Position numbers and translations under genes: made by a program
DNA from: Eubacteriales bacterium
GTDB lineage: Bacteria; Bacillota; Clostridia; Oscillospirales; CAG-272
DNA length: 64,000 nt
Direction: 5' to 3'
NCBI GenBank assembly: GCA_045635885.1
Contig: JAZTWO010000076.1
Span: 15,054-79,053, forward strand
In this document: positions 3 to 63,951 of the stretch, piece by piece
How positions within the stretch are numbered: the stretch's first letter is position 1
How the letters are laid out: every line of letters begins with the position of its first letter
The notes under the pieces: generated by a model
Databases searched by the model: none
What the model was told of the DNA's origin: nothing
Seen by the model: only the letters and a program-made list of their open reading frames with translations

Positions 3-869
3 ACAGGAGCTAAGAAGCAGGACTGGAGAACTTGGTTCCTTAACGGTTGGATCGATCTTGCAACTCCCATGGCATACTATAATGATGCAAGTGACGTTAA
101 TGCAAGAGTTAAAGATATGATCCTTATGGCAGGTAACAACTGCTTGTATTATACAGGTATTGCATCCTCTTACAGTGGTTTGCCCGCATGGCAGAATAAG
201 GAACATATTGAAGCTTCTTACAATGCAGGGGCTGCAGGTTACGTAATTTTCTGTTCAACACAGATTATTGGTCACCAGGACGTTCAGGATGCACTTAAGC
301 TTGGTGTAAACGGAAAGACAGCAGTTTTGCCTCACTCCGATATCAATCTTATTCTTGCCGCAAGCTTTGCGGATATTATTGACAAGGCAGGTAGACTCTA
401 TATCCCCGCAGGTGGTATGACTGAAGAACAGATGGCAGAGCTTGAAGCAATTCTTAACGAAATTGCTGCTATGTCCGATGAAGATACAGTGGCTATTTAC
501 CTTATCAAGAACCGTATTGAAAACCTTGTAAAGAATGAAATTAAGAATTATGCTAAGGGTTATTCTCGTCAGAGAATTATCGAACAGCTTAACGAAATGG
601 TTGACATTCTTGATGCAAGAATTTCTATGCAGCTTATCGCAGACGGCGAATGGGATCCTGAAGTAGAACCTCAGCGTCCCACAGTTAACGAAAACGGTAT
701 TGGTGTTCCTAACACACCCAATACACCTAACACTCCCAACAATCCTGTAAATCCTCCCGTTAACGGTGGAAATGACAATGGTACAGAAGAACCCGAACAG
801 CTTGGTTTCTTTGCTCGTCTTATTCAGGCAATCATTGCTTTCTTCCAAAGACTTTTTGGTAAGATTTAA
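3..869 (+). CDS. GHL10 (DUF187/YngK-like) glycoside-hydrolase-like exoprotein, C-terminal part; 5' end lies outside the window
   Basis: The frame is open from the window edge (nt 3). By eye it is roughly 60% identical to the last ~270 aa of the adjacent 733-aa ORF (DW.TWF..GWI..ATPMAYY, LYYTGIASSYSGLPA, LYIPAGGMTE). A Pro/Asn/Thr linker is followed by the C-terminal tail GFFARLIQAIIAFFQRLFGKI. Confidence 0.75.
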   Translation, partial: TGAKKQDWRTWFLNGWIDLATPMAYYNDASDVNARVKDMILMAGNNCLYYTGIASSYSGLPAWQNKEHIEASYNAGAAGYVIFCSTQIIGHQDVQDALKLGVNGKTAVLPHSDINLILAASFADIIDKAGRLYIPAGGMTEEQMAELEAILNEIAAMSDEDTVAIYLIKNRIENLVKNEIKNYAKGYSRQRIIEQLNEMVDILDARISMQLIADGEWDPEVEPQRPTVNENGIGVPNTPNTPNTPNNPVNPPVNGGNDNGTEEPEQLGFFARLIQAIIAFFQRLFGKI

Positions 870-3153: not shown

Positions 3154-6100
3154 ATGAAAATGTCAAGATTTTTGACAGTAATGGCAGTAATCCTTGTTCT
3201 TGTACTTGGTTTGTCTGCTTGTGAGTTCCCCTTGGTAAGTTCCACAACTTCTAACACAGTTGCAACTGAACCTACTAAGACAGAACCCACACACACTACT
3301 CCCACAACAACACCTACTACAAATGGTGGTAATCCCGGTGTTGATCCCACACCCGACCACGAATGCGAAAGCGTATGTCCCGAGTGTGGTTTGTGTCTTA
3401 ACGATAGTTGCGTAGATGCAGTATGCGCTGATAAGTGTGCTGGTCATCAGACAACTCCCGTTGAAACAACACCCGTTATCTCTGTAGTTCCTAGTGAAAT
3501 CGAGATTAACGCAGGTGACGATATCGATCTTATGTTCGGTGTTACTGTTGAAGACGAAGGCGACGAAGCTCCTCGTCTTATCATCTCTGATGATGATGAT
3601 TTTGATGCTGATGTTGAAGGTGTTTACACAATCACTTACACAGCAATCAACAAGTTTGGCAATGAAGCAACTGCAACACGTACAGTTACAGTTCTTAAGG
3701 CTCTTTCCGCTCTCACTCTTGAAGTTCAGAAGAACATTCTTGGTGAATCTAAGTGGACAGGCAACATGCTTAACTTCAAGAACAGCGAATACGTTGTTCT
3801 TAACGCAAGTGCAACTCTCGACAAACAGAGCGGTGTATTCTACAATGCATCTGGCTTTGAGATCACATTGACAATTTCAGGCGAATACGGCGTAGCAGCT
3901 ATCATTACTGCTAACGGCGTAGTAATTGAAGGCCGTGACGGTGCTAACAACAAGCTCGTTAACGCTTCTAACCCCGTTCGTACCTCCAGCTCCACTTCTA
4001 CTCTTGAAATCGATGGCGAAACAGTTTCTATCTCTAGCTCTTTCGCAAAGGGTATGAAGATTCCTGCAGGCGGTTATGCAATCGTTGTTCAGGCAGGTTA
4101 CTTGGGCACAACAGTTGACTCTGACGGTCGTGGCTTTATGTGCTACAACGTAATTGGCACAGTTGGTAACGTAGTTCGTTTGCTTTGGGCTGATACAAAT
4201 GAAGTTCTTACACCTTACGTTGACCAGGCTCCCGTTATCAACGGTTACAATACAACAGTTTACGCAGGTAGCAGCGAATTCGTATTTGATACAGAAGTTC
4301 TTGCAGGCGTAACAGCTACAGATGACAATGGCACATTTGATGTTTCCGACGACGTAACAGTTACAGTAACAATCAAAGACAATGGTGGCTTTGACATCAA
4401 CAAGCAGGGCAAATATACAGTAACTCTTGAAGCTACTGACGGTGAAAACACAACTGTAGTAACACGTACAGTTGAAGTTACAACTGAATCTGTTGAAATT
4501 AAGATCAACAATAATTCTTACGTAACACTTGAAGACCTTGTTGCAATCGACCAGGATCTTACAGTTCTTGGTAAGTACATCTTCGTTATCTACACACCTA
4601 ACTATAATGGTGGTCTTAACTGGACAAATGGCTACGGTGTAGCAGCAGTTATCAATAAGTACGGTGAAATCGTTCGTATTTACGACGGTGCAAGTGCTAA
4701 GTACTTTGACGAAAACAACAAGTCCGGTGTTCAGGACGGTACATGTACATCAGCTGGTTACTTGAAGGAAGCATTCGAATCTCGCCAAGATGGTGAATAC
4801 GTTCTTGTTGCTCCTAACGGTAACGGTAACGTTGGTAGAGGTTTCTTGTACTCCAACCGTACAATCGGTGCTAAGGTAACACTTCCTGGCATCACATTCG
4901 CAGCTCATGAATGTGAAAGCAAGTGCGCTAAGTGCGGTGGCTGTCTTGATGAAGCTTGTGCAGAAGCAGCATGCGCTACAAAGTGTAACTGCCACGAATG
5001 TGTAACAGTATGCGCTACATGTGGCAAGTGTGCTAACGCAGAATGTGCAGACGAAGTTTGCGCAGATAAGTGCGAAGGTCACGAAGTTCCCGCTCACGAA
5101 TGCGAAAGCGTTTGTGAACACTGTGCTAAATGTACAGACGCAGCTTGCACAGAAGAAGTTTGTGCTTCTAAGTGTGCAGGTCACGATAAGTCCATGTTCG
5201 TAACTATCGGTACAGCAAAGAAGTACGAAGCTCTTGAAGGCATGTGGGCTATCAACCAGGAAATCACAACATCCAATGCTGCAACAAAGGCAGTTTGGGT
5301 ATTTGATAAGAGCTACACAGGTAGCTTCAACACAAACGGTTACGGTGTAGCGGTAGTTCTTGACAGCTTTGGTAGAATTATTGAAGTTTATGACGGTGCA
5401 AACGTTGGTTACTGGTTGCCTTCTGGTAAGCAGGCAACTGCTCACTTCAATGCAAATACATACGCAACAACTGCATGGGCAGAACTTCAGGCAGGTGAAA
5501 CTCTTGTAGTATTCCCCAATGGTGTAGACGGCAACAAGGCTCGTCAGATCGGTCTTGATTCTCGTTACCTCTTCAATCAGAAGATGAACATCACAGGCGT
5601 TGAATTTGACGCTCCCGAAAAGACAATCACAGTAAATGGTAAGACATTTACAGCAGGTGAAGGCAAGTGGCTCTACAATACAACTGTTACTACTGCTCAG
5701 GCTCAGAACTACGCAATGATTATCTTTGATAAGAACTTCACAGGTGAATTCACAACTAATGCTTACGGTGCAGCTATCGTTCTTAACCAGTATGGTATGC
5801 TCGTAAAGGTTTATGACGGTGCTAACCTTGGCTTCTATCAGGGCAATGGTAATGAAACAGCTCACTTCACAACATCTAACTATGCTACAGTAGCTTTCTC
5901 CGACCTTAAGGATGGCGAAATTCTTATCATCCTTCCCAATGACGGAACAAATGGTGCAACATCTGCTCGTACATTTGGTCTTGGTCTTCGTACAGATGGT
6001 TCTATCGGTAAGGTAGCAACTCTTACAGGCTTCAGATTTGAATCTCCTGAAAAGACAATCACAATCGGTGCAAAGACATATACTGCTGAATACGGCAAGT

Positions 6101-27145: not shown

Positions 27146-27222
27146 GTGCCATTAGCTCAGCCGGATAGAGTGTTTGGCTACGAACCAAAAGGTCGGGGGT
27201 TCGAATCCCTCATGGCACGCCA
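27146..27222 (+). tRNA. tRNA-Arg (anticodon ACG)
   Basis: A 77-nt cloverleaf. Acceptor GTGCCAT/ATGGCAC, anticodon arm TTTGG-CTACGAA-CCAAA, T arm GGGGG-TTCGAAT-CCCTC, encoded CCA. It has its own consensus promoter and terminator. Confidence 0.9.
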
Positions 27223-34256: not shown

Positions 34257-35516
34257 ATGGAATTTTCAAATGAAGTTATAAAGCTTGTGGGCGAAGCTGA
34301 AATCGCCCTCAAGGAAACCTTTGAAGAAATTGACAGAATTTCTTTTAAAAATACTCAAAAGGTAATGAATGCTTTTGCTAACCACAGAGTTTCAGACGGT
34401 ATGTTTGGTTCAACAAGTGGCTATGGTTATGACGATAAGGGCAGGGACGTGCTTGATGAAATTTGGGCAGAGGTTTTTGGTTGTGAATCAGCATTGGTAA
34501 GACATTCTATAGTTAGTGGAACACACGCTCTTACTATAGGTCTTTTTGGGCTTTTGCGCCCAGGCGATATTATGCTTTCAGTTGCAGGCAAGCCCTATGA
34601 TACGCTTGAAGAGGTAATTGGAATTGTTGGTGAAGCAGGAAACGGCTCGCTTAAGGATTTTGGCGTTGAATATCGCCAAATTGAGCTTAAGGATGACGGA
34701 ACTTTTGATTATGAAACCGTTGGCAGAGAATTGAAAGTAAATGCGCAGAAAATCAAAATGGTATTTATTCAGCGTTCAAAGGGTTATCTTAACAGAAGAA
34801 CTCTTACAGTTGATGAAATTGGCGAAATGGCTCGTTTTGTTAAGTCGCTTTCTCCCGAAACTTACGTTGTAGTTGACAACTGTTATGGTGAATTCGTTGA
34901 AGAAAAAGAGCCGGTTGCTGTTGGCGCAGACCTTTGTATCGGATCACTTATAAAAAATCCCGGTGGCGGTATGGCAGAAACAGGTGGATATTTTGCAGGA
35001 ACTAAAAAGGCGATTGAACTCGTTTCTTACCGTTTGACTTCTCCCGGAACTGGTGCAGAGGTTGGTGCAACAATCGGACAAAATAAGAATATGTATAAGG
35101 GTCTTTTCTATGCTCCACATACAACTGCGCAGGCACTTAAAACGGGTTATCTTGCGGCATATATGTTTGAAAAAATGGGATACAATGCTGCTCCAAAGTG
35201 GAATGAAAAGCGTTCCGATATAATTCAGTCCGTTATTACAGGCGACCCTGAAATTCTTTGTGCTTTTTGTCGTGGAATTCAGGCGGGCTCTCCCGTTGAT
35301 GCATATGTTACTCCTGAACCTTGGGATATGCCCGGATATACCGATAAGGTAATTATGGCGGCAGGCGCATTCACACAGGGTTCTTCAATTGAGCTTTCTG
35401 CAGATGGGCCCATTAGACCTCCATACACCGTATATTTCCAAGGCGGATTGACATACGAAAGTGGTAAAATTGGCATTATGAGTGCGGCGCAGACCGTTAT
35501 GAATTTGAAAAAATGA
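34257..35516 (+). CDS. YnbB-like PLP-dependent enzyme ('aluminium resistance' / Cys-Met metabolism fold)
   Basis: 419 aa with motifs SGYGYDDKGRD and SGTHAL, typical of the YnbB family. Confidence 0.75.
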   Translation: MEFSNEVIKLVGEAEIALKETFEEIDRISFKNTQKVMNAFANHRVSDGMFGSTSGYGYDDKGRDVLDEIWAEVFGCESALVRHSIVSGTHALTIGLFGLLRPGDIMLSVAGKPYDTLEEVIGIVGEAGNGSLKDFGVEYRQIELKDDGTFDYETVGRELKVNAQKIKMVFIQRSKGYLNRRTLTVDEIGEMARFVKSLSPETYVVVDNCYGEFVEEKEPVAVGADLCIGSLIKNPGGGMAETGGYFAGTKKAIELVSYRLTSPGTGAEVGATIGQNKNMYKGLFYAPHTTAQALKTGYLAAYMFEKMGYNAAPKWNEKRSDIIQSVITGDPEILCAFCRGIQAGSPVDAYVTPEPWDMPGYTDKVIMAAGAFTQGSSIELSADGPIRPPYTVYFQGGLTYESGKIGIMSAAQTVMNLKK

Positions 35517-36679
35517 GAGAGATATATTTAGATAATAGTGCAACAACTCCGATTTGTGAAGATGCAAAAATTAAAATGAATGAAGCTATGGAATGCTATG
35601 GCAATCCATCTTCTCTTCATTCAAAGGGATTTGATTCTTCAAAAATGATAATTGATGCACGAAATAAGATACTAACCTCGCTTTTTGTAAGAAACGGAAA
35701 GCCCGAAAATCTCATTTTTACCGCAGGCGGAACAGAAGCAGATAATCTTGCGCTTATGGGTGTTGCTTATGCCAAAACTCGCAGAGCGAACAGAATTATC
35801 ACAACGGATTCTGAACATTCTGCCATTGAAAATACTCTCAAAGTACTTGAAAATGATGGATTTGAGGTTGTTCGTCTTACAACTAAAAACGGTGTTATAG
35901 ACATTGATGAATTTACGTCCGCAATGAACAAAAACACATTGCTTGTTACTATGATGCACGTTAACAACGAAACGGGTGCAGTGTACAACATTAAGGAGTG
36001 CTTTAAAATTGCAAAGCAGGTAAATCCCGACGTTGTAACACATACAGATGCGGTGCAATCCTATATGAAGCTTAAGGTTTCTCCAACAGAACTCTGCGCT
36101 GATTTGATAAGTATTAGCGCACATAAAATTCATGGTCCAAAGGGAATAGGTGCACTTTACGTTAGCCCCGATGTAATTAAGAAAAAGCAAATAAAAGCAA
36201 TTATTTACGGCGGTGGGCAGGAGTTTGGCTTCCGTTCAGGCACTGAAAATCTTATTGGTATTGCAGGCTTTGGTGCGGCGGCATATAGGGGATTTAAAAA
36301 CCTTGCCAAAGACGTAACTACAATGCGTGAGCTTCGTACATATGCCCTTGAAAAGCTTTCAAGCCTCAATGTTAGAGTTAATTTGCCAAAAGGTGAGTGT
36401 GCTCCGCACATCATTAATATAACCTTACCGTCAATTAAAAGCGAAACGATGCTTCACCATCTTTCTGCAAAGGGGATTTATGTTTCAAGCGGCTCTGCTT
36501 GTTCTTCAAACTCTGCTACAAAAAAGATTAGCCGTGCGCTTCGTGGCTTTGGACTTACTGATTTTGATGCTGATTGTTCAATGAGAATTAGTTTATCTCC
36601 TTTTAGTAAAAAAGAAGATATTGACGAATTGATTTTGGCGCTTTCAGAGGGAATTGATAAACTTGTTAAAATCAAATAA
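35513..36679 (+). CDS. Cysteine desulfurase (NifS/IscS class V aminotransferase)
   Basis: Motifs HVNNETG, SISAHKIHGPKG (PLP Lys) and SSGSACSS (catalytic Cys). ATGA overlap with the upstream gene. Confidence 0.85.
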   Translation: MREIYLDNSATTPICEDAKIKMNEAMECYGNPSSLHSKGFDSSKMIIDARNKILTSLFVRNGKPENLIFTAGGTEADNLALMGVAYAKTRRANRIITTDSEHSAIENTLKVLENDGFEVVRLTTKNGVIDIDEFTSAMNKNTLLVTMMHVNNETGAVYNIKECFKIAKQVNPDVVTHTDAVQSYMKLKVSPTELCADLISISAHKIHGPKGIGALYVSPDVIKKKQIKAIIYGGGQEFGFRSGTENLIGIAGFGAAAYRGFKNLAKDVTTMRELRTYALEKLSSLNVRVNLPKGECAPHIINITLPSIKSETMLHHLSAKGIYVSSGSACSSNSATKKISRALRGFGLTDFDADCSMRISLSPFSKKEDIDELILALSEGIDKLVKIK

Positions 36680-36724: not shown

Positions 36725-39415
36725 TTATTTGTTTTTCTTAATTTGTCTTGTTATCAATTTTGTGATTTCAACAATAGGAATTACAAGGATTGCAAGACCC
36801 AATGCGATACCGTATTCTGTGATATCAAGATGTGCAAGACTGAATGCTTCTGCAAGGAAGTCAATTTCAATTACTGCAGTTGTAAGCAAGAATGAAAGAA
36901 TTCCTGCGCCCCAGAGCCAAACGTTCTGAGTCTTCATCTTGAAGATTGAGCCGTGAAGTGATCTCATATTAAATGCGTGGAAAATTTCTGCCATTGAAAG
37001 TGTCAAGAATGCCATTGAAGTACCAAGCATTTCTGCACTATAAGTTCCTGCAGCAATTGCTTCTGCGTGGTGGAGTTGTGCAAGCCAATCACGACCAATG
37101 ATGTAAGAAGCAAGAGTGATAATTGTTACAAGAGCACCCTGATATACTACTGCAAAGCCAAGGCCACCTGCGAAAATGCCTTCTTTGGAATCACGAGGAG
37201 CGCGTTTCATAACGTCATCTTCGGGCTTTTCCATACCAAGAGCAAGTGCGGGGAAGCAGTCAGTAATAAGGTTAATCCAAAGCAAGTGAACTGCCAAGAA
37301 AATGTTCTGAATACCAAGAAGTGTTGCAAAGAAGATTGTAAGCACTTCAGAGAGGTTGGAAGCAAGAAGGAACTGAATAGCTTTTCTGATGTTATCGTAA
37401 ATTCTACGACCTTCACCTGCGGCTGAAACGATTGTTGCAAAGTTGTCGTCTGCAAGAATCATATCAGCAACGTTCTTAGTAACGTCAGTACCTGTAATAC
37501 CCATACCAACACCAATGTCGGCATTTTTAATAGAGGGAGCATCGTTTACACCGTCGCCTGTCATAGCGGTAATCTTACCTTTTTTACGCCAAGCATTAAC
37601 TATTCTTGTCTTATGCTCGGGTTGAACACGTGCGTAAACGGAATATTTTTCAACAAGAGTTTCAAAATCTTCATCTGAAATATCGTCAAGCTCTGCACCT
37701 GTAATTGCTTGAGATGCATCACTGATAATACCAAGCTGTGTTGCAATAGCAACTGCAGTGTCCTTATGGTCACCTGTAATCATAATGGGACGAATACCTG
37801 CAAGACGGCACTGGTCAATAGCAGGTTTAACTTCGGGACGAACGGGGTCGATCATACCAACCATACCGATAAAGCAAAGATTATTTTCAACTGCCTCTGC
37901 TTCATAAACTGTGGGAGCAGCATCAAGATCTTTGTAAGCGGCAGCAAGTACACGAAGCGCACGGTCTGCCATGCCTTTGTTTGCGGCAAGGATTTGTGAT
38001 CTGATTTCGTCATTAAGAGGAGTTACCTTGCCACCAATGAGGGCGGAAGTACAAACCTTAAGAATTTCATCAGGAGCACCCTTTGTGAACTGAACGAACT
38101 TGCCGTTTTCTTTTGTATGAACTGTGGTCATCATCTTACGCATAGAGTCGAAGGGAACTTCGCCAACACGCACGAAAATGTTCTTTTGAGTGTTTTTAGA
38201 AAGATTAAGTGTTTCTGCATAGTTAACAAGAGCACATTCTGTGGGCTCACCAACAGCTGTACCTTCCTTAACGTCAAATTCTGCGTCAGAGCAAAGTGAC
38301 ATTGCGTTTGCAAGAAGGGCTTCGTCTTCGCCATGGTGGTCAACAACGGTCATCTTGTTTTGTGTAAGAGTACCTGTCTTGTCGGAGCAGATAATCTGTG
38401 TGCATCCAAGAGTTTCAACCGCAGTAAGCTTACGAATAATGGCATTTCTCTTGGACATATTAGTAACACCGATTGAAAGAACGATTGTTACAACAGTTGA
38501 AAGACCTTCAGGAATTGCTGCAACCGCAAGGGAAATAGCAACCATAAAGAAGTCCATAACCTTATCGAATGTAAATGCACCTGTTGTTACAAGTTCACGA
38601 ATAACGTTAATGCCAAATACGAGAATAGAAATGATGATTACGAGAACTGTGAGGATTTTTGAAAGCTGAGAAAGCTTTACCTGAAGGGGAGTTTTACCTT
38701 CTTGAGCATTTGCAAGAGCATCTGCAATCTTACCCATTTCAGTATCCATACCTGTGCCGGTTACAACTGCTTTTGCTCGTCCGTAAACGATAACACTACC
38801 CATGTAAACCATGTTCTTGCGGTCACCGAGTGTAACCTCGTCAGATTCAATTATATTTTCAGTTTTGTTTACAGGAACGGATTCACCGGTAAGAGCGGCT
38901 TCTTCCGCTTTAAGAGAAGCACACTCAATAATTCTTGCATCTGCAGGAACTGCGTCGCCTGCTTCAAGAACGATAATATCACCAACTACAAGATCTTCAC
39001 TTTTAACAGTGATTTGGCGTCCGTCACGAATAACCTTACTTGTTGCAGCGGCAATTTCTTGCAAAGCTTCAATTGCTTTTTCTGCCTTGCTTTCTTGAAG
39101 AACGCCGAGAATAGCGTTGATAAGAACTACTGCAAGAATAATAACGACGTCTGAGGGGAAGCCGAAATGACCGCTTGTAACACCCTCATAGATTTCCATG
39201 CCTGCAGAGATAGCTGCAGCAACGATAAGAATGATGGTCATGGGTTCTGCAAGCTGCTTCATAAAGCGCTTGAACATAGACTCTTTTTGACCTTCAGCGA
39301 GTTTGTTTTTTCCATTTTTTTCAAGACGTGACTGAGCTTCTATTGAAGAGAGACCGTTTTCGTTAGTTGAAAAATGGGAAAGAACTTCTTCTTTGGAATT
39401 GTTGTAGAAATTCAT
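36725..39415 (-). CDS. P2-type cation-transporting ATPase (Ca2+/Mn2+ exporter class, YloB/MgtA-like)
   Basis: Motifs TGES, PEGL, DKTGTLT, MITGDH and GDGVNDAP. ATG 39415 follows AAAAAGGAG. The 45 extra N-terminal codons in the ORF track cover the riboswitch leader. Confidence 0.9.
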   Translation of the reverse strand: MNFYNNSKEEVLSHFSTNENGLSSIEAQSRLEKNGKNKLAEGQKESMFKRFMKQLAEPMTIILIVAAAISAGMEIYEGVTSGHFGFPSDVVIILAVVLINAILGVLQESKAEKAIEALQEIAAATSKVIRDGRQITVKSEDLVVGDIIVLEAGDAVPADARIIECASLKAEEAALTGESVPVNKTENIIESDEVTLGDRKNMVYMGSVIVYGRAKAVVTGTGMDTEMGKIADALANAQEGKTPLQVKLSQLSKILTVLVIIISILVFGINVIRELVTTGAFTFDKVMDFFMVAISLAVAAIPEGLSTVVTIVLSIGVTNMSKRNAIIRKLTAVETLGCTQIICSDKTGTLTQNKMTVVDHHGEDEALLANAMSLCSDAEFDVKEGTAVGEPTECALVNYAETLNLSKNTQKNIFVRVGEVPFDSMRKMMTTVHTKENGKFVQFTKGAPDEILKVCTSALIGGKVTPLNDEIRSQILAANKGMADRALRVLAAAYKDLDAAPTVYEAEAVENNLCFIGMVGMIDPVRPEVKPAIDQCRLAGIRPIMITGDHKDTAVAIATQLGIISDASQAITGAELDDISDEDFETLVEKYSVYARVQPEHKTRIVNAWRKKGKITAMTGDGVNDAPSIKNADIGVGMGITGTDVTKNVADMILADDNFATIVSAAGEGRRIYDNIRKAIQFLLASNLSEVLTIFFATLLGIQNIFLAVHLLWINLITDCFPALALGMEKPEDDVMKRAPRDSKEGIFAGGLGFAVVYQGALVTIITLASYIIGRDWLAQLHHAEAIAAGTYSAEMLGTSMAFLTLSMAEIFHAFNMRSLHGSIFKMKTQNVWLWGAGILSFLLTTAVIEIDFLAEAFSLAHLDITEYGIALGLAILVIPIVEITKLITRQIKKNK

Positions 39416-39451
39416 TTTTTTCTCCTTTTTAAATTTATTGAAGTGACTTGC

Positions 39452-39566
39452 ATAAAAAAGACTCAAGTGTTGGTTAAACACTTGAGTCTTGTTCATTAAG
39501 ATATGCCAGACCGAGTGGTCATGATGTTGACATATCACGTTAATACGCAAACTACTCCCTCGAGTG
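39452..39566 (-). promoter_or_regulatory. Probable yybP-ykoY (Mn2+) riboswitch with terminator expression platform
   Basis: The minus-strand leader reads CACUCGAG-GGAGUAG...GUCAACAU...AACAAGA-CUCAAGUG. The conserved GGAGUAG and CAAGA boxes are flanked by a P1 helix (7 of 8 pairs). The 3' P1 strand is also the 5' arm of a 14-bp terminator hairpin (39458-39490) followed by UUUUUU. It sits 5' of a P-type ATPase, a known genomic context for this riboswitch class. Confidence 0.65.
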
Positions 39567-39571
39567 TTTAT

Positions 39572-39600
39572 ATTATATCACATTGTCTAATTTTTGTCAA
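39572..39600 (-). promoter_or_regulatory. Sigma-A promoter of the riboswitch-ATPase unit
   Basis: On the minus strand: TTGACA, a 17-nt spacer, then TATAAT. Both hexamers match the consensus exactly, and the promoter lies directly upstream of the riboswitch. Confidence 0.75.
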
Positions 39601-39618
39601 GAAAAATATTAACATTTT

Positions 39619-40680
39619 TTAATTAATTATTCCGCCACCAACCACAATATCTCCATCATAAAGAACAACTGATTGACCTCTTGTTATCGCACGTTGAGGT
39701 TCGTCAAATGTTACTTTAATTGTGTCTTTATCAATTTGTTCAACAGTAGCAGGTTGTTCCTTTTGATTGTAGCGGATTTTGGCTTTAACTTTAATTGGCT
39801 CGGTGATTTTTTCACAAGAAATAAGATTAATATTACTTGCGGTGAGTGTTGTTCCAAAAAGTTCGGAATTGCGTGCAAGAGTAACTGTGTTGTTTTCAAG
39901 ATTTTTTTCAACAACGTACATCGGTTCTCCAAGAGCGATGCCAAGTCCTTTGCGTTGACCAATGGTGTAATTAATAATTCCTTGATGTGTTCCCAGGATA
40001 TTTCCGTTAAGGTCAATAAAATTACCTTTTTTAAATGTTTCTCCCGTAGTTTTTTCAATAAATGATACGTAGTCACCGTCGGGAATAAAACAAACGTCCT
40101 GGCTATCTTTTTTTCTTGCATTAACAAATCCGATTTGCTCTGCAAGATTGCGTGCATCTGCTTTGGTCATCTCTCCTAAAGGGAAGATAGTGTGTGCCAA
40201 TTGATTTTGAGTAAGAGAATAGAGAACGTAGCTTTGATCCTTGGTCAAATCCAAGGCTTTTTTCAGTAAATAACGTCCGTTTTCGCCTTTTTTAATGCGT
40301 GCATAATGACCTGTGGCAACTGCGCCATAACCACGCTCCATAGCCATTTTAAGAAGCTGTTCGAATTTTATTTTTCGATTACAAACAACACAAGGGTTGG
40401 GAGTAGAACCGTTTTTATAGCAATTTATAAAATCTCCAATAACGCATTCCTTAAAAGCCGCACCAAAGTCGTGTGTTTCGTGAGGAATGCCAAGAATATC
40501 GCAAACGGATTTGGCATCTTTAATATCTTGGGCAGAGCAACAGGAGTTTTCACCATATATTAAATTGTCGCTTTCGTCGTGCAACTTCATAGTAACGCCA
40601 ATTGCTTCGTTGCTTTGCTTAATGAGATAAGCAGAAACGGCACTGTCAACTCCGCCACTCATTGCAACAAGAACTTTCAT
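39619..40680 (-). CDS. mnmA: tRNA 2-thiouridine(34) synthase
   Basis: PP-loop SGGVDSAV and the Cys motif NPCVVCN. ATG 40680 follows AAAGGAG; the ORF-track start 40716 is an extension. Confidence 0.9.
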   Translation of the reverse strand: MKVLVAMSGGVDSAVSAYLIKQSNEAIGVTMKLHDESDNLIYGENSCCSAQDIKDAKSVCDILGIPHETHDFGAAFKECVIGDFINCYKNGSTPNPCVVCNRKIKFEQLLKMAMERGYGAVATGHYARIKKGENGRYLLKKALDLTKDQSYVLYSLTQNQLAHTIFPLGEMTKADARNLAEQIGFVNARKKDSQDVCFIPDGDYVSFIEKTTGETFKKGNFIDLNGNILGTHQGIINYTIGQRKGLGIALGEPMYVVEKNLENNTVTLARNSELFGTTLTASNINLISCEKITEPIKVKAKIRYNQKEQPATVEQIDKDTIKVTFDEPQRAITRGQSVVLYDGDIVVGGGIIN

Positions 40681-40694
40681 TGAAAAACTCCTTT

Positions 40695-41207
40695 CTATAT
40701 TTTGTAGTCTTCCCACATAAACGTTGTGGGAGTGCCTTCTTCAAGCAATCCATCAAAATCATTTTGTCTGAACACTTCATAAACAGCTATTGCAACCGAA
40801 TTTGATAAATTGAGTGAGCGAAGATTGGGTCGCATAGGTATTCTAACACATTTGTCGGGATTTTTTTCAAGCAAAGCTTCAGGAAGCCCTTTGGATTCTT
40901 TTCCAAACATAATGAAAACATCACCACAATAAGTTGCTTCTGTATATTTTCTTGGTGCTTTTGTTGTAAAATAGAATACGTTTGCATTGGGATTTTTATC
41001 AAAGAAATCATCAAGATTTTCATAATATGTGATGTCAAGCAAATGCCAATAATCAAGACCTGCACGTTTGAGCTTTTTATCGTCTATTTCAAATCCCATG
41101 GGTTTAATTATATGTAATGATGCACCGGTTGCAGCACAGGTGCGTGCAATGTTTCCTGTATTTTGGGGAATTTCCGGTTCGTGAAGCACAATATTTATCT
41201 TAGACAT
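40695..41207 (-). CDS. trmL: tRNA (cytidine/uridine(34)-2'-O)-methyltransferase
   Basis: A 170-aa SpoU-type knotted methyltransferase with IVLHEPEIPQNTGNIART and LNLSNSVAIAVYE. Confidence 0.85.
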   Translation of the reverse strand: MSKINIVLHEPEIPQNTGNIARTCAATGASLHIIKPMGFEIDDKKLKRAGLDYWHLLDITYYENLDDFFDKNPNANVFYFTTKAPRKYTEATYCGDVFIMFGKESKGLPEALLEKNPDKCVRIPMRPNLRSLNLSNSVAIAVYEVFRQNDFDGLLEEGTPTTFMWEDYKI

Positions 41208-41358: not shown

Positions 41359-44088
41359 ATGGGACTTTTTGATAAGCTCTTTGGTACTTATAGCGAAAGA
41401 GAACTTAAAAAAATAGATAAAACGGTTTCAGAAATTGAGGCACTTGCCGATAAGTATTCTGCAATGAGTGATACAGAACTTTCTGGAATGACCGCAATAT
41501 TTAAATCACGCCTTGCAAAAGGTGAAACACTTGACAATATTCTTCCTGATGCATTTGCTGCGGTTAGAGAAGCGGCAGATCGTGTGCTTGGAAAGAGACC
41601 TTTTAGAGTGCAGATTATTGGTGGTATTATTCTTCATCAAGGAAGAATTGCTGAAATGAAAACAGGTGAAGGAAAAACACTTGTTGCAACAATGCCCGCA
41701 TATCTTAACGCACTTACAGGAGAGGGCGTGCATATTGTAACTGTAAACGATTATCTTGCTTCTCGTGACAGTGAAGAAATGGGTAGAGTTTATGGATTTA
41801 TGGGACTTACAACAGGTCTTGTAGTTCATGGACAAACTTCACAACAAAAGCAGGAAGCATATAATGCCGACATTACTTACGGTACAAATAATGAATTTGG
41901 CTTTGACTATCTTCGTGATAACATGGTTGTATATAAGCAAAATCTTGCTCAACGTGGACATTCATTCGCAATCGTTGACGAGGTTGACTCTATTTTAATT
42001 GACGAAGCAAGAACACCTTTGATTATTTCAGGTGCTGGTGATCCGTCAACAGATCTTTACACCAAGGCAGATACACTTGTTCGTAAGTTTAAAAAGCTTG
42101 TAGTTAAAGAAATGGATACAAAAGAGGACCAAGAGGACGTTGATGCAGATTATATCGTTGACGAAAAGGCAAAGAATGCAGTTATTACTCCTCGTGGTAC
42201 AAGAAAAGCAGAGCAGTTCTTTGGCATTGAAAACCTTAGTGATCCTGAAAATAACGAAATTGCACATCACATCAATCAGGCAATTAGAGCTTATGGCACT
42301 ATGAAACGTGATGATGACTATGTTGTTAATGAAAACGGAGTTATGATTGTTGACTCCTTTACAGGCCGTCTTATGCCCGGAAGAAGATATTCAAATGGTC
42401 TTCATCAGGCAATTGAAGCTAAAGAGGGTGTTAAGATAGAAAAAGAAAATCAAACTCTTGCTACAATTACATTCCAAAACTATTTCAGAATGTATAAAAA
42501 ACTTTCCGGTATGACAGGTACTGCACTTACAGAAGATGCAGAATTCCGTGAAATATATATGATTGACGTTGTTGAAATTCCCACTAATAGACCTATGATT
42601 AGAGTGGACCACAACGATATGCTTTATAAGAGCATCAATGCTAAATATAAGGCGATTGTTAATCAGGTAAAGGAATGTCACGCAAAGGGGCAACCTGTTC
42701 TTGTCGGAACAGTTTCTATTGATAAATCTGAGATTCTCTCAAAGCTTTTGCAAAGAGAGGGAATTCAGCACACCGTTCTTAATGCAAAGCTTCACGAAAA
42801 AGAAGCTGAGATAGTTGCGCAGGCAGGTAAGTTTGGTGCAGTTACCATTGCTACTAATATGGCAGGACGTGGAACTGACATTATGCTTGGTGGTAACTCT
42901 GAGTTTATGGCAAAGAACGAAATGCGCAAACAGGGATTTTCTGACGAGCTTATTGCAGTTTCAACAGGAACTGCCATTGTTGATGACGAAGAAATAATGA
43001 ATGCTCGCAGAACATTTGCAGAGCTAAATAAGAAGTTCAAAAAGGAAATTGAACCTGAAGCGCAAAAGGTTAGAGAAGCGGGTGGTCTTTTCATCCTTGG
43101 CTCTGAAAGGCACGAATCACGTCGAATTGACAATCAGCTTCGTGGACGTTCAGGCCGTCAAGGCGACCCCGGTGAATCATGCTTCTTCCTTTCACTTGAA
43201 GACGATCTTATTCGTCTTTTCGGTGGTGAAAAAGCGCAGATTGTTGCTAATAACCTTGGTATGAATGACGAGGATTGCCTTGACCTTAGATTCTTCTCAA
43301 ACGTGATTGAAACCTCACAAAAGAAGATTGAGGATAGAAACTTTAAAATCAGAAAGAACGTTCTTGCTTATGACGATGTAATGAATAAGCAAAGAGAACT
43401 TATTTACAAGCAAAGACAGGATGTTCTTAATGGTGTTGATATTTCAGGCAAGATTGTCAATATGATTAATGATACAGTTTCATATAAAGCGCAGGAATTC
43501 TATCATGCAGAAGATAGAACAATTGACCTTAACGGACTTGAGGCATTCTTTAGATTCCTTTTGGGTGAGAATTATCCCCATACACAAATCAGAGAGCTTG
43601 CAGATAAATGCAATATTGATGAAATTGTAGAATTGCTTTGCGAACGTGCAGAAATCGTTTATAAAGAAAAAGAAGAAATCTTTGGCGCAGAAAACATGCG
43701 TGAAATTGAAAGAGCAATTCTTCTTCGTAACGTTGACCAAAAGTGGATGGAACACATTGATGCTATGGATGATCTTAAGAGCAGTGTTGCTTTTGAAACC
43801 TATGCTCAAAGAGATCCCGTTAACGAATATCGTTTCCGTGGTGCAGATATGTTTGACGAGCTTGTTACCGATATAAGAGAGAATACTGCAAGAATGATTC
43901 TTTCTCTTACTAAAAAAGCTCCCGATACACAAAGAGTTCAAATAGCTAACCCAATTATGACATCTGCTTCAGGTGAAATTGCTAAAAAGCATATTACCGT
44001 AAAGAAAGCAGAAAAAGTTGGCAGAAATGATCCATGCCCTTGTGGAAGTGGCAAGAAATATAAAGCTTGTTGCGGTGCAAATAGATAA
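41359..44088 (+). CDS. secA: Preprotein translocase ATPase SecA
   Basis: Motor motifs MKTGEGKT and DEVDS, and the C-terminal zinc finger CPCGSGKKYKACCG; GGAGG SD. Confidence 0.95.
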   Translation: MGLFDKLFGTYSERELKKIDKTVSEIEALADKYSAMSDTELSGMTAIFKSRLAKGETLDNILPDAFAAVREAADRVLGKRPFRVQIIGGIILHQGRIAEMKTGEGKTLVATMPAYLNALTGEGVHIVTVNDYLASRDSEEMGRVYGFMGLTTGLVVHGQTSQQKQEAYNADITYGTNNEFGFDYLRDNMVVYKQNLAQRGHSFAIVDEVDSILIDEARTPLIISGAGDPSTDLYTKADTLVRKFKKLVVKEMDTKEDQEDVDADYIVDEKAKNAVITPRGTRKAEQFFGIENLSDPENNEIAHHINQAIRAYGTMKRDDDYVVNENGVMIVDSFTGRLMPGRRYSNGLHQAIEAKEGVKIEKENQTLATITFQNYFRMYKKLSGMTGTALTEDAEFREIYMIDVVEIPTNRPMIRVDHNDMLYKSINAKYKAIVNQVKECHAKGQPVLVGTVSIDKSEILSKLLQREGIQHTVLNAKLHEKEAEIVAQAGKFGAVTIATNMAGRGTDIMLGGNSEFMAKNEMRKQGFSDELIAVSTGTAIVDDEEIMNARRTFAELNKKFKKEIEPEAQKVREAGGLFILGSERHESRRIDNQLRGRSGRQGDPGESCFFLSLEDDLIRLFGGEKAQIVANNLGMNDEDCLDLRFFSNVIETSQKKIEDRNFKIRKNVLAYDDVMNKQRELIYKQRQDVLNGVDISGKIVNMINDTVSYKAQEFYHAEDRTIDLNGLEAFFRFLLGENYPHTQIRELADKCNIDEIVELLCERAEIVYKEKEEIFGAENMREIERAILLRNVDQKWMEHIDAMDDLKSSVAFETYAQRDPVNEYRFRGADMFDELVTDIRENTARMILSLTKKAPDTQRVQIANPIMTSASGEIAKKHITVKKAEKVGRNDPCPCGSGKKYKACCGANR

Positions 44089-46475: not shown

Positions 46476-46551
46476 TGGAGCTAGTGAAAAGACTCGAACT
46501 TTCGACCTGCTGATTACGAATCAGCTGCACTACCGACTGTGCTACACTAGC
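46476..46551 (-). tRNA. tRNA-Thr (anticodon CGT)
   Basis: The reverse complement folds as a 76-nt cloverleaf. Acceptor GCTAGTG/CACTAGC, D arm GCAC-AGTCGGTA-GTGC, anticodon arm GCTGA-TTCGTAA-TCAGC, T loop TTCGAGT, encoded CCA. Confidence 0.9.
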
Positions 46552-63875: not shown

Positions 63876-63951
63876 TGGCAGGGGCAGGAGGATTCGAACC
63901 CGCGACCCACGGTTTTGGAGACCGGTACTCTACCAGCTGAGCTATACCCCT
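63876..63951 (-). tRNA. tRNA-Trp (anticodon CCA)
   Basis: The reverse complement is a 76-nt cloverleaf. Acceptor AGGGGTA/TGCCCCT, anticodon loop CTCCAAA, T loop TTCGAAT, encoded CCA. Two non-Watson-Crick pairs are noted (27:43 C-U and 50:64 C-C). Confidence 0.85.

Follow-up and report, generated by a model that had tools for sequence, protein, structure and literature searches.

The minus strand of a 64-kb window (the whole stretch of DNA that was analysed, 64,000 nt of contig JAZTWO010000076.1) from an uncultured member of the gut Clostridia with a low-GC genome (38 %) encodes a P-type IIA cation ATPase, and the gene is preceded by a structured leader that has its own promoter and ends in an intrinsic terminator. 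This leader is very probably a riboswitch of the yybP-ykoY Mn2+ type, belonging to the three-way-junction subtype that lacks helix P4 and acting as an ON switch for the ATPase. The transcription unit consists of the following parts around the aptamer.

39572..39600, minus strand, sigma-70-type promoter: TTGACA at 39600-39595, a 17-nt spacer with TG, and TATAAT at 39577-39572
39454..39490, minus strand, intrinsic terminator: a 14-bp stem (39490-39477 with 39471-39458), the loop UAACC, and U6 at 39459-39454
39413..39428, minus strand, ribosome-binding site (RBS) and start codon: RBS AAAGGAGA at 39428-39421 (GGAG at 39425-39422) and ATG at 39415-39413
36725..39415, minus strand, P-type IIA cation ATPase of 896 aa, assigned from NCBIfam, PDB and motifs (LMCA1-, SERCA- and PMR1-like)

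An earlier note on this DNA, made from its letters, had described most of these parts. The promoter, which it called a perfect TTGACA-17-TATAAT sequence, scored 12/12 in a consensus scan of 39300-39800, and its TG corresponds to an extended -10. Judged by the spacing from the -10 box, the transcript probably starts at about 39567-39565, at the 5' end of helix P1, and the terminated leader is ~114 nt long, where ~115 nt had been estimated. It begins with ACACUCGAG followed by GGAGUAG, reads AAC, AAGA and CUCAAGUGU near its 3' end, and has its 8-bp P1 flanked by the boxes GGGAGUAG and AAGAC, so that the two boxes around P1 lie where they had been placed. The limits of the second one had to be redrawn, as the string given for it (AACAAGA) is made up of the 3' strand of helix P1.2 (AAC) and the start of the box proper, AAGAC. 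The 14-bp terminator hairpin followed by U6, with a 5' arm that reuses the 3' strand of P1, was found as described, but the spacing from the end of the U-tract to the ATG is 38 nt, not 37. The hairpin contains five G-C pairs and a 5-nt loop, two of the U6 residues are counted within the stem, and it is the one terminator-like site found by the consensus scan, compared to 0.2 expected from shuffled sequences.

Between the promoter and the U-tract, the aptamer was divided into the following elements, in 5' to 3' order.

39559..39567, minus strand, 5' strand of P1 (P1.1), ACACUCGAG, pairing with 39486-39478
39553..39558, minus strand, 5' strand of L1, GGAGUA, which together with G39559 makes the GGGAGUA box
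39549..39552, minus strand, 5' strand of P1.2, GUUU, pairing with 39494-39491 (GAAC)
39537..39548, minus strand, P2 hairpin, GCGU-AUUA-ACGU as folded, variable in length among orthologs
39531..39536, minus strand, 5' strand of P3.1, GAUAUG, pairing with 39505-39500 (CAUAUC)
39521..39530, minus strand, 5' strand of L3, UCAACAUCAU, the presumed metal-site loop with a conserved C-A dinucleotide
39509..39520, minus strand, P3.2 hairpin, GACC-ACUC-GGUC
39506..39508, minus strand, 3' strand of L3, UGG, the same as in E. coli mntP
39495..39499, minus strand, single-stranded linker UUAAU (junction J3/1), which replaces P4
39491..39494, minus strand, 3' strand of P1.2, GAAC
39487..39490, minus strand, 3' strand of L1, AAGA, of which AGA plus C39486 close P1
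39478..39486, minus strand, 3' strand of P1, CUCAAGUGU, the switching sequence, which the terminator uses in its 5' arm

The outer 9-mers form P1 with 8 bp and one C·A mismatch, and the conserved L1 adenosines and the closing pair of P3.1 are present, as would be expected for the cross-helix A-minor contact of the class. Folded alone, the aptamer forms P1 together with two hairpins, one small and one long, the long one being interrupted by an internal loop. In the window, P3.1 and P1.2 are separated by only 5-6 unpaired nucleotides, which cannot form a hairpin.

Orthologous leaders were examined in 80 loci, fetched with the 896-aa protein from one-genome-per-species contigs and belonging to metagenome-assembled genomes of uncultured gut Clostridia/Bacillota. 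The 80 ATPases share 64-83 % protein identity, and a GGAGTA motif is located 130-190 nt upstream of the ATPase start in most of the loci. In total, the leader precedes ~70 of the 80 genes, 67 of them with the three-helix form and 3 with a form that has P4. The common architecture consists of P1, GGGAGUAR, a P1.2 of 3-4 bp, a variable P2 hairpin, P3.1, UCAACA..., a P3.2 hairpin, YUGG and the 3' strand of P3.1, followed by a short A-rich linker, the 3' strand of P1.2, (A/G)AGAC and the 3' strand of P1. The linker takes the place of P4 in 67/67 three-helix leaders and reads UGAAA, UUAAA or AUAAA in about two thirds of them; in the clade of the window it is UUAAU, and a few other leaders also deviate from UNAAA.

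When 53 compact leaders were aligned with MAFFT, without regard to structure (alignment A1), the invariant positions were GGGAGUA (53/53), the C and A of L3, the G of UGG, and AG-C of the 3' box. Within L3, C39 and A43 are invariant and A40, A41 and C42 are at least 90 % conserved; in its 3' strand the G (G61) is invariant, the triplet being UGG in 41/63 and CGG in 7/63 leaders. In the 3' AGAC box, A79, G80 and C82 do not vary and A81 is at least 90 % conserved.

Helices P1, P1.2, P3.1 and the base of P2 are supported by covariation. RNAalifold predicted 18 pairs on A1, 15 of them with compensatory double changes. Paired cells amounted to 93.7 %, compared to 75.5 % in shuffled alignments and 30-48 % when the partners were slid by 1-3 columns, whereas double-change cells numbered 222 versus 59 +/- 13 in shuffles and the covariation score was 0.64 versus 0.27; none of 500 shuffles reached any of the observed measures. 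For P1 (columns 5-9 with 107-111), 94.7 % of the cells were paired, with double changes in 3/5 pairs, and for P1.2 (columns 16-19 with 99-102) the value was 97.6 %, with the exchanges AU:26/GC:25 and CG:24/UA:22. The base of P2 was paired in 84.9 %, with compensatory changes in 3/3 basal pairs. In P3.1, 94.7 % of the cells were paired, all six pairs showed double changes, and complementarity was complete (6/6) in 49 of 63 leaders. The P3.2 hairpin had been left unaligned by MAFFT; an approximate per-sequence test predicted it, with at least 3 bp, in 47/63 leaders.

A covariance model built from A1 (R1) recovered held-out leaders at 45-80 bits, including four loci that the motif scan had missed. 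A second alignment (A2) was then made of 61 R1 matches, from which the window and its four closest relatives were excluded, and the model built from it (R2) gave a single match over the 64-kb window, at 39478-39567 on the minus strand, with 75.7 bits and E = 6.7e-17. Three loci (L003:1336-1450, L008:1330-1444 and L012:1339-1446) contain a longer aptamer, with one more hairpin where P4 would be expected and an L. lactis-like L3, UCGUCAUCAC, and were scored by R1/R2 at 20-26 bits. Four-helix and three-helix forms thus occupy the same orthologous position, and neither of them attained the gathering score of RF00080.

Ten of the 80 loci gave no match, two of them cut by contig ends with a terminator remnant still visible. 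In another, L019, the synteny of mnmA and the ATPase gene is as in the window, and the ~150 nt upstream of the ATPase (~1350-1500) retain only the linker and the 3' box (AUAAAGCAAGAC) as well as the terminator, and are without the 5' half of the aptamer (GGGAGUA, L3); either a riboswitch in decay or another kind of regulator could be present here. Locus L064 has two complete three-helix units in tandem (1068-1177 and 1261-1392), the second copy being recovered by R1, before one ATPase gene, which differ substantially in sequence and have each their own terminator (T-runs at ~1210 and 1436).

These orthologs also bear on where the ATPase begins. In the mechanical list of open reading frames (ORFs), the gene appears as a 941-aa version that begins at a TTG at 39550, within the aptamer, and the earlier note had held that it should be trimmed to 896 aa. 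Judged from the sequences, the true start is the ATG at 39415 and the 941-aa version is an artefact, because a good RBS precedes this ATG, the tblastn matches of the orthologs begin at residue 1, the alignment to Listeria LMCA1 begins at residue 3, and 61 of 69 orthologs have an in-frame stop no more than 45 codons before the start (median distance, 15 codons). The uninterrupted frame from 39550 into the ATPase could also be taken to mean that the longer ORF is real and the RNA structure a coincidence. Against this are, in addition to the points just given, the position of the -10 box only 22 nt upstream of the TTG, the strong terminator inside the extension, the lack of any ortholog match to the 45 extra residues, and the substitutions in the leader, which are compensatory base-pair changes and do not follow a codon pattern. 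The probability of a coding extension is consequently negligible.

The 5' arm of the terminator holds AAGAC and the entire 3' strand of P1. As positions 39490-39478 are common to both structures, P1 and the terminator are mutually exclusive, and in at least 62 of 67 leaders from orthologous loci the terminator likewise shares sequence with the 3' box and the 3' strand of P1. The fold of the full leader had a z-score of -5.55, and 0/200 shuffled sequences were equally stable. On the 114-nt leader, the conformer with the terminator, P2 and P3 was calculated at -29.2 kcal/mol versus -17.0 kcal/mol for the closed aptamer, a difference of 12 kcal/mol in favour of the terminator. Because of this higher stability, termination would be the default (OFF) state, and read-through would need a P1 stabilised by the ligand.

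According to the mechanism that we propose, transcription would start at the consensus promoter, at the 5' end of P1. In the absence of metal, AAGAC and the 3' strand of P1 would enter the 14-bp terminator as its 5' arm, and the polymerase would stop at the U6 tract, leaving the ~114-nt leader. A rising concentration of a divalent cation, most likely Mn2+, although Ca2+ possibly binds too, would bridge L1 (GGGAGUA/AAGA) and L3 (UCAACAU/UGG). This bridging would dock the P1-P2 leg onto the P3 leg, lock P1 and sequester the 5' arm of the terminator, so that the polymerase would continue into the ATPase gene and the excess cation would be exported by the pump. The element would then be a transcriptional ON switch like those of L. 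lactis yoaB and S. pneumoniae mgtA, the analogy from which we infer its direction in vivo.

A further pairing was noted in the minimum free energy fold of the whole 5' untranslated region, in which GGAGUAGUUUGCGUA, from the 5' region of L1/P1.2/P2 (39544-39558, minus strand), pairs with UAUGCAAGUCACUUC (39439-39453, minus strand), which sits just 3' of the terminator. Strings of CUUC/CUCC, resembling an anti-Shine-Dalgarno sequence, lie between the terminator and the RBS in L001, L002 and L005. Both the pairing and the strings could be due to chance, or could be an added layer of control in read-through transcripts.

The assignment to the yybP-ykoY class follows from comparison with known members. 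The class has been linked to metal exporters that include P-type ATPases, such as L. lactis yoaB and C. difficile CD2503, and in C. difficile the single Mn2+ riboswitch lies before a P-type ATPase (PMC11477304). The E. coli mntP riboswitch and the leader of the window were laid out by hand as follows.

mntP: UUUG-GGGAGUA-GCC-[P2]-GUACGUG-UCAACAUACU-CGUU..AACG-UGG-CACGUAC-[P4 hairpin]-A-GGC-GAGAC-CAUAU
Window: UCGA-GGGAGUA-GUU-[P2]-GAUAUG-UCAACAUCAU-GACC..GGUC-UGG-CAUAUC-UUAAUG-AAC-AAGAC-UCAAG

L1 and L3 are nearly identical in the two RNAs (UCAACAUACU versus UCAACAUCAU, UGG in both, GAGAC versus AAGAC), whereas P4 is replaced by the linker in the window. The 5' L1 box equals that of mntP, GGGGAGUAG, and the consensus of both Rfam families RF00080 and RF02617; the L3 consensus of RF00080 is GUCAACAUAC...UGGC. 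The order of the helices is the same as in the canonical four-way-junction members of RF00080 (mntP, L. lactis yoaB, B. subtilis yybP/ykoY), and the conserved loops imply for the window the L1-L3 docking architecture of these members. The C and A of L3 that coordinate the metal are invariant, being C40/A41 in L. lactis and C49/A50 in S. pneumoniae (PMC6649816). Regarding the output, mntP and the E. coli alx element act on translation, whereas the leader of the window works through a terminator, as do those of L. lactis yoaB and S. pneumoniae mgtA.

In a search of the E. coli mntP region with R1, filters off, the best match was the riboswitch itself (5463-5551, 14.1 bits, E ~ 0.0015); with default filters mntP was not detected, as its P4, an insertion relative to the model, disrupts the global alignment.

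The closest likeness is to the mgtA leader of S. pneumoniae (SN44), described (Martin et al. 2019, PMC6649816) as a yybP-ykoY three-way junction that has UNAAA in place of P4, an AGA that never varies on the 3' side of L1, and a terminator, and that precedes a gene for a PII-type ATPase. A related transcript, SSRC10, is an RNA of ~110 nt from S. pyogenes with its own promoter and terminator, directly before SPyM3_0440, a 'putative calcium transporter' (Tesorero et al. 2013, PMC3675131). The window shares with mgtA/SSRC10 the three-way junction of P1/P1.2, P2 and P3.1/P3.2 with a short A-rich linker and no P4, the 5' L1 box GGGAGUAG, the AGA of the 3' L1 strand, the terminator laid over the 3' strand of P1, the dedicated promoter, the terminated leader of ~110 nt, and the PII-type Ca2+/Mn2+ ATPase downstream, a comparison that rests on the published description and on the RF02617 model. 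They differ in L3, which in the window reads UCAACAU as in mntP and not the streptococcal/L. lactis type CGUCAAUA, and in their hosts, an uncultured low-GC gut member of the Clostridia versus Streptococcus.

The loss of one helix also has a precedent in E. coli alx, whose yybP-ykoY element is a three-way junction through loss of P2 (PMC12153347), so that the family tolerates the lack of a peripheral helix and still senses Mn2+. The helix lost is not the same, as alx keeps P4 and the window keeps P2, and alx has a different L3, is coupled to pH and acts on translation.

Several observations weigh against the assignment. At the gathering score of RF00080 (Rfam 15; 45 bits), no match was found in the 64-kb window nor in 20 orthologous loci. 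The gathering score of RF02617 (56 bits) was reached neither by the window (34.5 bits) nor by the ortholog L040 (40.2 bits), although both matches are significant, this being a model of streptococci only. The aptamer-only fold is just modestly stable compared to shuffles (z = -1.95). Canonical members have P4 stacked on P3, and the window has no P4. The last position of the linker UUAAU deviates from the UNAAA that is invariant in streptococci. Finally, as regards the metal, it is a Ca2+-ATPase (LMCA1) that the pump resembles most, and in vitro the S. pneumoniae aptamer has a higher affinity for Ca2+ than for Mn2+ (PMC6649816).

The first of these points concerns a search with RF00080 that the earlier note had set as a test of its proposal, a Mn2+ riboswitch of this class, and the lack of a match at the gathering score formally counts, for this half of the test, as a refutation. 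The search was also negative at E <= 10 on a 281-nt stretch around the leader, and only when 39452-39572 was searched did a local match appear, on P3/L3 (39501-39535, 13.4 bits, E = 0.034). The RF00080 model comprises 177 positions, with base pairs for P2, P3 and a long P4 alone, and lacks both the 3' box of L1 and the 3' strand of P1, so an aptamer lacking P4 scores poorly with it. Even the validated E. coli mntP riboswitch (L081:5462-5558), used as positive control, obtained 41.6 bits, below the gathering score. Because this control is also sub-threshold and the model needs P4, the RF00080 miss is not accepted as a refutation: it is a false negative, and the test is uninformative for members without P4, a subtype that the earlier note did not recognise. 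What that note had said of the RNA, a yybP-ykoY-type aptamer before a P-type ATPase, is borne out by the covariation, the R2 match, the RF02617 match, the loops shared with mntP and the published three-way junction (PMC6649816).

The best Rfam match of the leader was to RF02617 (SSRC10), which aligned end to end over aptamer and terminator (39453-39564, 34.5 bits, E = 2.1e-5). Other matches were discarded. A preQ1-II match (20 bits), obtained at E <= 10 on the 281 nt, was driven by the RBS and the terminator, lay far below gathering and is of chance level, as are the matches of miRNA families to the terminator hairpin in that search; the miRNA, BsrG and S774 matches were also far below gathering and aligned only the terminator hairpin or A/T-rich flanks.

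As RF02617 is filed as a small RNA (sRNA), and SSRC10 was detected as a discrete S. pyogenes transcript with promoter and terminator of its own (PMC3675131), the consensus promoter and strong terminator of the window could similarly serve to produce a stand-alone, trans-acting sRNA of ~114 nt, its position before the ATPase being incidental. This is very improbable. The element lies in the same orientation immediately before the orthologous ATPase in ~70 of 80 species, the scan of 39300-39800 found no separate promoter between the terminator and the ATG, and the overlap of P1 and terminator in at least 62/67 leaders is a hallmark of a cis-acting switch. A terminated leader is, moreover, expected to accumulate in the OFF state, and for the streptococcal homolog riboswitch function was demonstrated afterwards (PMC6649816). 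SSRC10 itself lies directly upstream of a putative calcium transporter and has its own promoter and terminator, and from this context its sRNA entry appears to describe the streptococcal mgtA leader in terminated form.

The regulated ATPase scored 626 bits with the PMR1-type, 620 bits with the SERCA-type and 516 bits with the PMCA-type models of NCBIfam, only the last being above its cutoff. Among solved structures it is closest to Listeria LMCA1 (6zhf, E = 9e-207, residues 3-892 aligned), and it contains the motifs TGES, PEGL, DKTGT, MITGD, GDGVND and NLITD. By analogy, the pump probably exports Mn2+ or Mn2+/Ca2+.

For the riboswitch, Mn2+ is the most likely ligand by analogy, given the identity of its L1 and L3 with those of Mn2+-responsive members. 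As a physiological signal it is not secure, because of the LMCA1-like pump and of the tighter Ca2+ binding by the S. pneumoniae aptamer. The same fold and ON mechanism could therefore respond to Ca2+ or another divalent cation and control a Ca2+ efflux pump. Besides the nearness to LMCA1 and the higher affinity of the S. pneumoniae three-way junction for Ca2+ (PMC6649816), the pump passes only the cutoff of a Ca2+-ATPase in NCBIfam and has the Ca2+-site motifs PEGL and NLITD, while the linker differs from the streptococcal UNAAA and one subclade has the L3 CCGCUAAC...CCGG. These points are opposed by the essential identity of L1/L3 with those of the Mn2+-responsive mntP, and by the transport of Mn2+ by PMR1/SPCA-type and MgtA/YoaB-type pumps that have the same motifs. 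No natural Ca2+ riboswitch is known. In S. pneumoniae, in addition, both the read-through in vitro and the induction in vivo respond to Mn2+ rather than to Ca2+, Mn2+ being the stronger activator even though Ca2+ binds more tightly (PMC6649816). A physiological signal other than Mn2+ is thus unlikely.

It is likewise doubtful that the three-helix clade of the gut Clostridia is tuned to Ca2+, or to both Ca2+ and Mn2+, and not to Mn2+ alone. If it were, it would provide a natural Ca2+-responsive riboswitch controlling Ca2+ efflux, and the subclade with the L3 CCGCUAAC...CCGG and the L064 tandem would represent further tuning of selectivity or cooperativity. This subclade comprises L028, L029, L034, L035, L036, L038 and L043, in which the GUCAACA...CUGG of L3 is replaced by CCGCUAAC...CCGG or, in two of the loci, by UCGCUAAC...CCGG. 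The change around the presumed metal-coordinating C-A coincides with a U-to-C change in the 3' strand of L3, and it might alter metal selectivity.

Around the transcription unit, the neighbouring genes are the following.

39619-40716, minus strand, mnmA (tRNA 2-thiouridine synthase), directly upstream and ending 19 nt before the -35 box
35513-36679, plus strand, IscS/NifS-type cysteine desulfurase, convergent and downstream
41359-44088, plus strand, secA, further upstream on the opposite strand

Three tRNA genes were identified by Rfam in the window at 55-70 bits, at 27146-27219 (plus strand), 46479-46551 (minus strand) and 63879-63951 (minus strand). Among the orthologous loci, the ATPase of L075 is flanked by a c-di-GMP-I riboswitch (50.1 bits; L075:1152-1237, minus strand) and an RT-5 RNA (54.2 bits; 5446-5546, minus strand), and the upstream region of L012 shows repeated sub-threshold matches resembling Gut-1 RNA (131-207 and 424-498, plus strand).

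Both the riboswitch class and its three-helix subtype were already known, and nothing conceptually new is added here. For annotation, the consequences are that the 941-aa ORF should be trimmed to 896 aa, that RF00080 of Rfam 15 misses the three-helix subtype, and with it every one of the ~70 ATPase leaders, and scores E. coli mntP below its threshold, and that RF02617, 'SSRC10 Streptococcus sRNA 10', corresponds to the same type of RNA filed as an sRNA. For the biology of the family, the assignment means that the mgtA-type Mn2+ riboswitch with a three-way junction is present beyond streptococci, in many uncultured gut Clostridia, where it is the usual regulator of the LMCA1-like ATPase (~70 of the 80 species sampled). 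By analogy with the better-known members, such pumps, which are annotated as Ca2+ pumps, probably serve in the detoxification of Mn2+ or of Mn2+/Ca2+.

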